A DNA stretch of 63,539 nt, filler included, from Mycoplasmatota bacterium (GCA_012727915.1; 7 parts of 7 records of this genome joined end to end with filler, not necessarily neighbours in it), one strand, 5' to 3'; positions 30,901-33,900 are shown, numbered from the whole stretch's first letter. A program made the numbers.

Positions 30901-33900
30901 TTTCCATATCACTATGTAATCCTTTATATTTTTTCGTGTGAGGTTTATTTTTGTTATATACTCCTGTTTTATAGAATACATAAGGATGTATTGTTGAATC
31001 TAATGTATAGTGTAATATGTTTCCATATAAGTAAGACATTACTTGTTTATTAGACTCTAATTTATTATTCTTAATATAAGAAATTAAATTATAAAAATAA
31101 TCTTGAGTATTAGTTCTATGCATTTTTTCGCTTAATTTTTTCATTTTTTTTGTTTTGGAATAATTAAAAGAATAATAAAAAAACAATATATCAGGGCCTT
31201 GTGAAAATATTTTAAGTAAATCTAAATCGATATATTTTTTAAGTTTTAATTTTTTATATACATCATTAGCAAAATAAGCATGTGTTATAGTACTTGGCAT
31301 AATTCTCCTCATTTATATAATATAATTTTTTATACAAAAAATCAAATTTTTTATGGTATAATTTTAATGGTGATACTATGGCAACAAAAAAAGAATTTAA
31401 AACTTTAGACCAACAAATACTTATATTAAAAAATAAGGGTTTGATAATAGAAGACGAGGAAAAAGCAAAAAATATATTATTTAGAGAAAATTATTTTTTC
31501 ATAAATGGTTATAGGTATATTTTTTACAAATCACAAAATGATAGAGTATTTATCGAAGGTACTACTTTTGATGAATTATATGCTTTTTTTATATTCGATA
31601 GAAGTATTAGAAATATTATGTTTAAAAATATATTAATAGTTGAAAATAATATAAAATCAGTTATGAGTTATATATTATCAAAGAAATATGGAATAAAAGA
31701 AAAAGATTATTTAAAAGCTAGTAATTTTTCGAGAGATTATTCTAAATCAAGAAGAATAAATGATGTTATTGGAAAGATGAAAAGACAAATAAAAATAAAT
31801 AGTAAACAACATAGCGCTACATTACATTATATTGCTAATTATGGTTATATTCCTATGTGGATTATGGTTAAAGTGTTATCATTTGGAATAATAAGCGAAT
31901 TATATTCAATATTAAAAGATGAAGATAAAAAAGAAATTGCTGATTACTATAATGTTGATACTGAAGACTTGGAAATATTTTTATCAGTAACTGCTAATTA
32001 TAGAAATTTATGCGCACATGAAGATATTTTATTTGACCATAAAACTCAAAGAGATATTCCTGATACTGAATATCATAATATATTGAAAATTCCAAAAGTA
32101 AATGATGAATATGTTTATGGAAAAAATGATTTTTTCTCGGTATTATTAATTATGAGACACTTATTATCAGAAGAAGAATTTAGATTGTTGGTTTATGAAA
32201 TAGGATATGAAATAGATTTGTTGGATGGAAAAGTATCATCAATTCCTTTATCCAAAATATTACATAGAGTAGGTTTTGTTGATAATTGGAGAGATATATT
32301 GTTATAGGAGGAAAAAATGAAATCAAATAAAAAGTATATTTTAATATCTGTATTAATATTTTTCTTAGGTGCTTTAGGAATGTACTTATTAATAAGTTAT
32401 GTTCCTTTAAAGACTAAAACAATTACTGAGGTTAATAATGAGTATAAAATTGAAGAAACTGCGGTAGAACAAGCTATAGATAAAGTGTATGATGCTGTTG
32501 TAGTTGTTGAATCTTTTTCAAATAATAGAAAAATTGGAACTGGAACGGGTTTTATTTATAAAAAGGATAATAAATATGGATATGTTATGACTAATAGTCA
32601 TGTAATTGGAAATGGAAATCAAGTAAAAATATTATTATCTGATGGAAAAGAGATAGACGCTAAAATTTTAGGAAAAGATGCATTATCTGATATTGCAGTA
32701 TTATCAATATCTTCAAATAGTGTAAAAAAAGTAGCGGAAATAGGAAATAGCGAAAATACAAAACTTGGAAACACTGTAATAACTGTTGGAGCCCCAATGG
32801 GGAGTGAATATAGTGGTACTGTAACTAAAGGTATTTTATCCGGAAAAGATAGAATGTTAACTGTTAGCTTAAGTAGTTATAGTTCTAATGATTTAATGAT
32901 AAGAGTACTTCAAACTGATGCTGCTATAAATCCAGGTAATAGTGGAGGGCCATTGGTTAATATTGCGGGTCAAGTAATAGGTATTACATCATTAAAATTA
33001 GTGCAAAGTGAAGTTGAAGGAATGGGATTTGCTATTCCGATTGAAGATGCAATGAGATATGTAGAAGATTTAGAAAGTGGTAAAGAAATATCTAGACCTT
33101 TTATAGGAATAGAAATGTTAGATGTTAACGAAGTATATTCATTATTTATTGAAGGCATAATACTTGATGAAGAAATAGAAAAAGGTGTTGTTATAATCAA
33201 TGTTACAGAAAATTCTCCAGCAGAAAAGATTGGATTAAAAAGAGGAGATATTATATTAAAAATGGGAGATAAAGAAATTGATAATAAAGCACAATTAAGA
33301 TATGAATTATATAAATATAAGGTTGGAGATAAATTAAAAATATTTGTTTATAGAGATGAAAAAATAAGTGAATATACTTTAACATTAATAAGTAATGAAA
33401 ACTAATATATAAGGTGGTATATTATGAATGAAGGTTTGAAGGTACTAAAAAGAGACAACAAAAAAGTTGATTTTAATGGTGAAAAAATCGCAATTGCAAT
33501 AAAAAAAGCTTTTGATAGTAGAGAAGAATTCATTGAAAAATATACCGATGATGATATTAATAAAGTTTATAATTCTGTATTGGAAGATATATATGATAAT
33601 TACTTTGAAAAAGCTTATATTAAAGTTGAAGAGATACAAGATATAATAGAAAAAATGTTAATGAAATTGTCTTATCAAGATGTTTATGAATCTTTTTCTA
33701 ATTATAGAGATAAAAGATCAGAATCTAGAAAGATGTTTTTATCAGAACCTAAACAACATAAATTATTAAAAGCTATTGAAAAAATAACTTTAAAACAAGA
33801 TATAATATTAAAAAATAATGAAACACCAATGGATGTATTATTAAATTATGGAAAGATTATATCTGAAGAAATTTCTAATGCTTATTTAATAAATAATAAA

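Follow-up and report, generated by a model that had tools for sequence, protein, structure and literature searches.

An AbiF-family HEPN protein conserved across the order RF39 is encoded upstream of htrA at a locus without the family's antitoxin RNA in cis

The described members of the AbiD/AbiF family pair a toxin with an RNA antidote and are found mostly on mobile DNA, according to recent accounts of the family (bioRxiv 2025.04.15.648962; PMC13064643; PMC12737573). In these AbiF systems the RNA, encoded upstream of the toxin gene, has a terminator at its end and inhibits the toxin, and mutation of the R and the H of the catalytic motif is reported to abolish toxicity (bioRxiv 10.1101/2025.04.15.648962; PMC13064643; PMC12737573). 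The lactococcal AbiD, AbiD1 and AbiF proteins are described as plasmid or prophage proteins, again with an upstream RNA, the upstream DNA being more conserved than the gene itself (PMC13064643). There is a precedent for high prevalence, as abi_2 is given as present in 89% of S. aureus genomes, and the same source states that the role of chromosomal AbiF copies is unsettled (bioRxiv 2025.04.15.648962). HEPN domains of conflict systems are also held to have been recruited to core roles in eukaryotes, as in Las1, Swt1 and the KEN domains of IRE1 and RNase L (PMC3710099).

Here we describe a chromosomal Abi_2 gene from a Mycoplasmatota genome assigned to the order RF39 by the initial annotation, whose names RF39 and UBA660 are used here. 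The window, that is, the whole stretch of 63,539 nucleotides that was analysed, consists of several contigs joined by N spacers, and the locus lies on contig C33 (27836-35302). The initial annotation had placed there an Abi_2 reading frame with an intact HEPN motif just ahead of an HtrA reading frame, and this is what we find. The Abi_2 gene (31378..32307, + strand) encodes 309 amino acids; the htrA gene (32317..33405, + strand), second in the predicted operon, encodes 362, and the reading frames are separated by a spacer of 9 nt. The Abi_2 product matches Pfam PF07751 with 136.8 bits (cut-off 25.6, E 1.3e-39) and the PADLOC AbiD model (E 2e-58), carries the motif R209-N-L-C-A-H214-E215 (encoded at 32002..32022, + strand), and is predicted to be a cytoplasmic homodimer, sequence analysis having found no membrane segment or sensor domain in it. 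The HtrA-family serine protease has a trypsin domain with the His-Asp-Ser triad (motifs at 92, 124 and 207), one PDZ domain and a membrane anchor (hydrophobic segment from residue 8); it matches Pfam Trypsin_2 and PDZ, and the NCBIfam HtrA models remain under their cut-offs.

For the comparisons below, proteins more than 50% identical to this one are called core, and the 54 core loci are the best-scoring ones among the matches of the order and the class, with two near-duplicate pairs included. Upstream of the Abi_2 gene in this genome are rplM, rpsI and then a divergent gene (30329..31312, - strand) for a Zn-dependent phospholipase C (PLC)-like protein (Pfam PF00882). This PLC-like gene is a frequent neighbour, near the Abi_2 gene in 15 of the 54 core loci, and its membership of the unit is only putative. 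An ATP-cone/NrdD-like gene (33424..35302, + strand), cut by the contig end, begins 18 nt 3' of htrA; it occupies the same position in three loci of the genus and is a lineage-specific neighbour.

An Abi_2 match was obtained in 149 of the 151 genomes sampled from the order, and in 146 of them it is full-length, at E<1e-100 and 53-100% identity, nearly always as one copy per genome. This agrees with the high prevalence that had been put forward from genome-wide counts (Abi_2 in 1429 of 1553 UBA660 genomes, the pair with HtrA in 1268 of 1554 RF39 genomes). Three further genomes (G003, G024, G075) hold only a copy of 32-40% identity and two (G077, G001) hold none; HtrA was not found in any of these five. 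G001, which is 90% complete, alone represents the second family of the order. In the other four, true joint loss was considered and rejected: the PLC-like gene and cwlD, in a search part of which was run without a positive-control genome, are missing together with htrA, although SpoIVA is present and the congeners have the core gene, so that an assembly gap is the likelier explanation. In the other families of the class, 35 of 262 genomes gave an Abi_2 match, of which only the one in G155 is an ortholog (53% identical, and followed by htrA), the other 34 being 20-39% identical; G155 is alone in its order and G001 alone in its family, so that sampling is thin at the clade's outer limit. Among 1.84 billion representatives, the core clade makes up a single full-length 50% cluster, which scores 515 bits; the second-best full-length cluster scores 285. 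A quick tree of 72 proteins puts the 54 core rows on one side of a branch with a support of 99, a split that is partly built in by the identity threshold defining the core, and most of the congeners' Abi_2 proteins cluster together.

The sequence is constrained to a degree comparable with that of housekeeping genes. Mean identity over five genomes is 56% for Abi_2, against 55% for RNase III, 53% for RNase R, 42% for RnpA, 64% for RNase Y, 65% for PNPase and 49% for HtrA (the last over four genomes). The dN/dS of core Abi_2 is 0-0.12 in nine congener pairs and lies under that of the downstream gene in 9/9, the values being rough as several dS exceed 1. Purifying selection is strong, and the protein may be important for growth. 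The patchy occurrence and the mobile or defence-island location expected of an abortive-infection gene are not what we observe, the gene being present in 146/151 genomes among stable neighbours, namely ribosomal-protein, cwlD and htrA genes and not mobile genes. Viral contigs scanned with patterns from the core alignment yielded 10 loci, partly redundant and all of 33-41% identity, with no core-type copy among them.

A second, cut Abi_2/HtrA pair on contig C55 had been taken as a second copy in this genome. This contig is most likely mis-binned rather than the carrier of a paralog: it is 1502 bp long with a GC content of 29%, against 25% genome-wide, its Abi_2 is 67% identical to a copy from another genus and only 58% identical to the C33 copy (45% for HtrA), and both congeners hold a single core copy.

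The upstream regions were searched for a partner antitoxin RNA. Many divergent copies of the family show, in order, a promoter, a GC-rich bulged hairpin, a U-tract, a ribosome site and the gene. In nine such hairpins of mobile copies, 94% of cells are paired and changes on both sides occur at 6/9 pairs, the structure having been drawn from those same nine sequences. Rfam at a relaxed threshold did not recognise these hairpins, and a covariance model was built on the nine; it matched 8 held-out sites next to mobile copies, as well as a site just 5' of the gene in 10/10 phage Abi_2 loci, likewise held out. Applied to 52 core sources, the same model gave no match with an E below 0.5, and in another 18 core regions it matched nowhere next to the gene. 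The Rfam abiF model matched in 1/61 genomes, neither at any of 20 core loci nor in this genome.

What the core loci possess instead is a promoter of the housekeeping type, as predicted from a sequence scan. An extended -10 lies 13-45 nt 5' of the start in 50/54 core loci, as compared with 1/18 divergent copies and 113/429 first-in-unit genes of this genome for the same spacing. In this genome, the predicted element (TGnTATAAT; 31354..31362, + strand) is 15 nt 5' of the ATG, with no terminator or hairpin in those 15 nt, and is followed by a ribosome-binding site, GGTGAT (31369..31374, + strand), similar purine-rich sites being seen at other core loci. These are the only conserved elements upstream of the core gene. 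The position of the -10 implies a predicted leader of about 10 nt, too short for an antitoxin RNA; in layout, the core unit resembles a mobile unit minus its hairpin, and the cis antitoxin hairpin is, on the evidence of these scans, lost from the core clade. As for an RNA acting in trans, the hairpin model matched in 8/41 whole genomes, this one not among them, and it misses 8/18 divergent loci, so that a diverged RNA acting in trans may have escaped it.

It is here that the reading of the gene as still a conflict gene has to be weighed. The protein would then be an addiction or abortive-infection effector, silenced by a diverged trans-acting RNA or protein, or self-inhibited until triggered by a phage. 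Its catalytic motif and fold match those of toxic AbiF, PADLOC labels it AbiD, the RNA RCd22 is reported to act in trans too (bioRxiv 2025.04.15.648962), the reach of the hairpin model is limited by the 8/18 divergent loci missed, and addiction would account for the lack of clean loss. Yet the cis hairpin is absent and no model match was obtained in 33/41 genomes, conservation and dN/dS are at a housekeeping level, none of the 10 viral-contig matches is of the core type, the gene sits among ribosomal-protein, cwlD and htrA genes and not mobile ones, and the overall basic charge of the family has been lost. We regard it as unlikely. The loss of the cis antitoxin, the clustering of congeners, the strong purifying selection and the lack of a viral core-type copy together support what the initial annotation had proposed, a domestication away from toxin-antitoxin defence.

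The protein itself has kept the motif and the predicted fold of the family. The structural model (pLDDT 81.7) has a sole PDB match at E<=0.001, PbAbiF (8VZ6), with a TM of 0.69; the sequences align with E 1.2e-16, the R209/H214 motif falling on R210/H215 of PbAbiF. Of the 309 positions, 54 are invariant in the 54 core proteins, including R209, N210, H214 and E215, and the R, N, C, A, H and E of the motif are kept in 54/54. The predicted homodimer scored 0.82, against 0.00 for the best control, possibly through its likeness to 8VZ6, and its interface holds residues 210 and 213-216; the mark for a dimer is reached by 20/30 solved pairs and 1/23 single chains, and the runs agreed in at least 77% of contacts with a pLDDT of at least 88. 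With a predicted dimer bearing the R-x4-H motifs at its interface, endoribonuclease activity is most likely retained.

The charges of the protein, for their part, have shifted. Median net charge is +1 in the core proteins, +11 in the 18 divergent copies and +8 in 116 representatives. At position 217, 96% of core proteins have Ile where 78% of the others have Arg, and position 174, mostly Lys or Arg elsewhere, has become Glu; since some mobile copies in the alignment also lack Arg at 217, this change alone is no mark of attenuation. Helix 121-140, on the other hand, has a charge of +5.4 in the core against +1.2 in the others, with K123, R125, K133, K135, R136 and K139 near-invariant in the core. 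We infer that the RNA-binding surface of the core protein was remodelled and that non-specific cutting was weakened. These changes might also suit an RNA-binding regulator, whose dimer would bind a host hairpin with no net cleavage and control the stability or read-through of its target: AbiF proteins are reported to hold hairpin RNA tightly (bioRxiv 2025.04.15.648962), the invariant basic helix is new to the core clade, and acidic residues adjoin the active site. A pure binder would have no need of R209, N210 and H214, though, which are kept in 54/54, and an autoregulatory RNA element in the gene's own coding sequence was considered and rejected, no window of excess synonymous conservation rising above 0.09. 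We consider such a regulator quite unlikely. The ESM Atlas returned Abi_2 clusters only, and nothing about the function of the core clade could be learned from fusions among 12 of the 150 scanned representatives, no search aimed at longer forms having been made.

We then come to the link with HtrA. As read by eye from search coordinates, htrA directly follows core Abi_2 in 136/146 genomes, and HtrA without core Abi_2 occurs in no genome of the sample. Six of the 146 (G147, G150, G054, G072, G070, G032) are uncoupled from a full-length htrA, two of them (G150, G054) having short trypsin-like genes after core Abi_2; three others (G002, G010, G110; 98, 100 and 93% complete) keep core Abi_2, followed within the contig by another gene, with no HtrA at E<=1e-15, and in the remaining one the contig edge comes directly after Abi_2.

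Helix-phased TTTTCA(C/T)A repeats lie upstream of the -10 in 10/48 core promoters, against 1/172 promoters of this genome. Two conserved OmpR-type systems exist in the group, for which NCBIfam, plasmid records and the Atlas give generic labels only; one of the two is presumably similar to CssR. A matrix trained only on 16 promoters of one response regulator, with scores of at least 8 counted, was applied to 37 of the 41 genomes (three are without that gene and one has a truncated promoter). It finds the box at the operon promoter in 17/27 genomes with either regulator and in 0/10 with neither, over a background of 1/172 promoters; the Fisher p of 0.0006 is overstated, as kin are not independent. 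Over the 54 core loci the box is present in 19 and absent in 35, this genome scoring 0.5, that is, no box. In sequence, the repeat is similar to TTTTCACA, which is given as the canonical CssR box (PMC6749698).

All 9 core copies that have no full htrA behind them are without the box, and it is carried by 4/6 stand-alone htrA genes and 1/7 second paralogs. This pattern indicates that the predicted CssR-type box belongs to htrA and not to the nuclease. That a box serving htrA sits 5' of the nuclease gene, in 17/27 genomes with candidate regulators, supports a single Abi_2-htrA transcript and so the operon that had been proposed from gene order. The notion that the nuclease works with HtrA as an obligate partner fares less well: three genomes have no HtrA, six are uncoupled, the box follows htrA, and the nuclease is without a membrane segment, whereas HtrA has an N-terminal anchor. 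The behaviour of the box says that the nuclease would need a constitutive promoter only. The link with HtrA is thus one of operon, and a functional partnership is doubtful.

One might speculate all the same that the gene encodes a stress-gated RNase, co-induced with HtrA through a CssRS-like system, which would cut mRNA or tRNA and lower the load of exported protein in the manner of the RNase arm of IRE1. Its position directly 5' of htrA in 136/146 genomes, the box found only in genomes with a regulator (17/27 against 0/10, background 1/172), the similarity of the repeat to TTTTCACA (PMC6749698) and the reported recruitment of HEPN domains by eukaryotic unfolded-protein responses (PMC3710099) would all fit. 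But the box is absent here and in 35/54 core loci, it goes with htrA (9/9 copies without a full htrA lack it), the nuclease is kept where HtrA or both regulators are missing, the protein has no membrane or sensor domain, and no tool names either regulator CssR; we hold this explanation to be unlikely. The wider version of it is improbable too: a toxin lineage ancestral to Cas13, tamed anew, its antitoxin swapped for a host RNA or a stress signal, to give an HtrA-co-induced RNase that would lower the translation load under secretion stress, as the bacterial counterpart of the IRE1 arm.

Replacement of a missing RNase was considered as well. RNase III, P, Y, R, PNPase and YbeY are present in 5/5 genomes, together with a match of the size of Mini-III. 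RNase Z was not found in 5/5 genomes (best 44 bits, cut-off 293), yet no replacement for it is needed, since CCA is encoded in each of the 29 tRNA genes of this genome and RNase R is there too. RNase M5 was not found in 18/18 genomes of the family, and a replacement of this enzyme was likewise rejected: families that do not have the core gene are short of it as well (found in 0/3 genomes in f14, 0/9 in f18, 0/6 in f22, 1/7 in f10), it co-occurs with core Abi_2 in G155, and each of the 29 5S rRNA genes inspected leads directly into a U-tract, with no evident helix beyond it for the enzyme to cut. The predicted RNase set therefore appears to leave no vacancy to fill, which counts against the explanation preferred below.

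The neighbourhood of cwlD, cotJ and LysM amidase genes might point to sporulation or germination, a cwlD-like gene being directly 5' of core Abi_2 in 16/54 loci and the order being predicted to sporulate (PMC10868615). SpoIVA was not found in 14/81 genomes, this one included, the same genomes having a weak or missing Spo0A; as all 14 keep core Abi_2 at E<1e-100, and as the promoter is of the housekeeping type, a role in sporulation was rejected and is hardly credible.

The explanation that we prefer, and to which we would give an even chance, is that of a domesticated HEPN dimer, made constitutively and free of an antitoxin, whose specificity has narrowed and which cuts host RNA in turnover, quality control or maturation. 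An AbiF-type toxin gene would have settled directly 5' of htrA in the ancestral chromosome of the group, and would then have lost the hairpin-terminator RNA that normally throttles transcription of the toxin and blocks the enzyme, so that a short-leader promoter of the housekeeping type would now read Abi_2 and htrA together. The protein would still form a dimer whose interface holds both R-x4-H motifs. Next to the catalytic residues, E215 together with the changes of R217 to I and of K174 to E would damp non-specific cutting, and the new invariant basic helix (121-143) would dock a specific host RNA. The enzyme would then act constantly, independently of sporulation and with no need of HtrA.

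In this large group of uncultured bacteria the core clade has been kept in spite of the loss of the antidote and while the genomes shrank to ~0.6-0.9 Mb, sporulation genes disappeared and three genomes lost HtrA, which suggests a routine cellular job for a relative of phage-defence toxins. It would be a direct case of a HEPN toxin turning harmless and useful, with named residue changes and with mobile relatives as controls in the same genomes. Biochemistry would also gain from an AbiF protein whose production does not require its RNA, the C. difficile toxin being one that could not be purified RNA-free (bioRxiv 2025.04.15.648962). Defence-system scanners, for their part, will score the core gene as 'AbiD' in almost all genomes of the group. 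The antitoxin-free core clade appears to be new here, though a published family tree could already include it. In full-text searches, which left most subscription papers outside their scope, we found no paper on RF39 with abortive infection or on UBA660 with AbiD; a search for a domesticated housekeeping HEPN ribonuclease matched a crop-editing review only, and, in keeping with the initial annotation, no paper among the matches listed for Abi_2 and HtrA (10 of 25) links the two, all of these concerning eukaryotic ABI2.

Among known systems, the nearest relatives by sequence are the mobile Abi_2 copies of the same genomes and of phages, 29-41% identical to the core gene. Unlike it, they are patchy, lie beside tRNA, tmRNA or integrase genes and never adjoin HtrA (0/18); many have a bulged hairpin showing compensatory changes in front of them, and often one behind them too. 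With the AbiF type III toxin-antitoxin systems (PbAbiF-AbiFr, 8VZ6; AbiF_Cd-RCd22 of C. difficile) the core protein shares family, fold and the R-x4-H motif, which in its predicted homodimer would likewise lie at the interface. It differs from them in being near-neutral and not basic, in the replacement of the family's arginine after the motif by isoleucine, and in being encoded by a fixed, vertically inherited, single-copy gene in an htrA operon, behind a short-leader promoter and without the upstream hairpin-terminator RNA. As the cis RNA and the attenuator, by which such systems are defined, are both absent, the core locus should not be filed as an AbiF type III system. It matches the model of the lactococcal AbiD/AbiD1/AbiF group (PADLOC AbiD, E 2e-58), but conservation upstream of it is confined to the -10 and the ribosome site. 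In comparison with CssRS-htrA of B. subtilis, direct repeats of the TTTTCACA type do lie upstream of the htrA operons of many relatives, but a nuclease gene stands between box and htrA, this genome has no box and the regulators are candidates for CssR. Finally, as against the eukaryotic HEPN RNases, core Abi_2 is bacterial, belongs to the Abi_2 family and stands alone, with no partner kinase or sensor domain, but with Las1, Swt1 and the KEN domains of IRE1 and RNase L it would share, as a functional analogy only, the domestication of a HEPN domain.

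Downstream of abi, the core Abi_2/AbiF HEPN gene, and of htrA lies an ATP-cone/NrdD-like gene on the plus strand (33424-35302), which falls well short of the cut-offs for NrdD. An exact repeat of the gene's last 42 codons stands at the end of contig C38, where the gene probably continues. On the other side, a Zn-dependent PLC-like gene on the minus strand (30329-31312) shares an intergenic region with abi, including its repeats where these are present, and this divergent arrangement is found in 13 of 54 loci. Genus g43 (loci L017 and L021) has a short, fast-changing trypsin-like ORF after abi (dN/dS 0.87), and its full HtrA, with the CssR-type repeat (box), is located elsewhere, away from abi. 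The assembly of the genome under study (G000) also includes a second abi-htrA pair, at positions 1-1502 of contig C55; this contig is probably contamination by a different species of this group.

Two OmpR-type two-component systems are conserved (loci L172-L190 and L193-L214). In one of them, a TTTCACA repeat with 11-bp spacing precedes the system's own start by about 50 nt; in the other, a GGAGG(T)GAT resembling a ribosome site frequently lies upstream of the extended -10. At about 105 nt, the 5S rRNA genes (L143-L171) are short, and a U-tract follows them directly; RNase M5 was not found in any of 18 genomes of the family, and the 3' end of 5S rRNA may be made by termination itself. CCA is encoded in all 29 tRNA genes of G000. 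Neither RNase Z nor a separate RNase PH had a match in any of five genomes, and a CCA-adding enzyme had none in four of the five.

SpoIVA was not found in G000, G040, G002, G005, G010, G011 and G017, nor in G023, G033, G042, G058, G060, G066 and G079, and in these same genomes Spo0A is weak, truncated or missing. The scatter of the SpoIVA-less lineages across 13 genera indicates that sporulation has been lost repeatedly within the order.

Mobile Abi_2 genes have hairpin copies on both sides, which are direct repeats in one subtype (L055, L067, L068) and inverted in another (L057-L060), and tRNA or tmRNA genes often adjoin them. A divergent copy in a genome of another family (G279; L063:2989-3930), 31% identical, has the short-leader extended -10 layout of the core clade, perhaps through a separate loss of the antitoxin. 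Antitoxin-type hairpins also occur alone, with no Abi gene within the examined locus, at L077 (G020:C2:64690), L079 (G031:C24:1057), L080 (G007:C40:1081) and L085 (G007:C30:105), three of the four being accompanied by a promoter-like stretch. These are possibly scars of toxin genes that were lost by recombination between the repeats on either side of them. At L074 (G030:C47:3460-3496), a canonical abiF motif of Rfam lies amid small phage-like ORFs, and no Abi gene stands within 1.5 kb of it.
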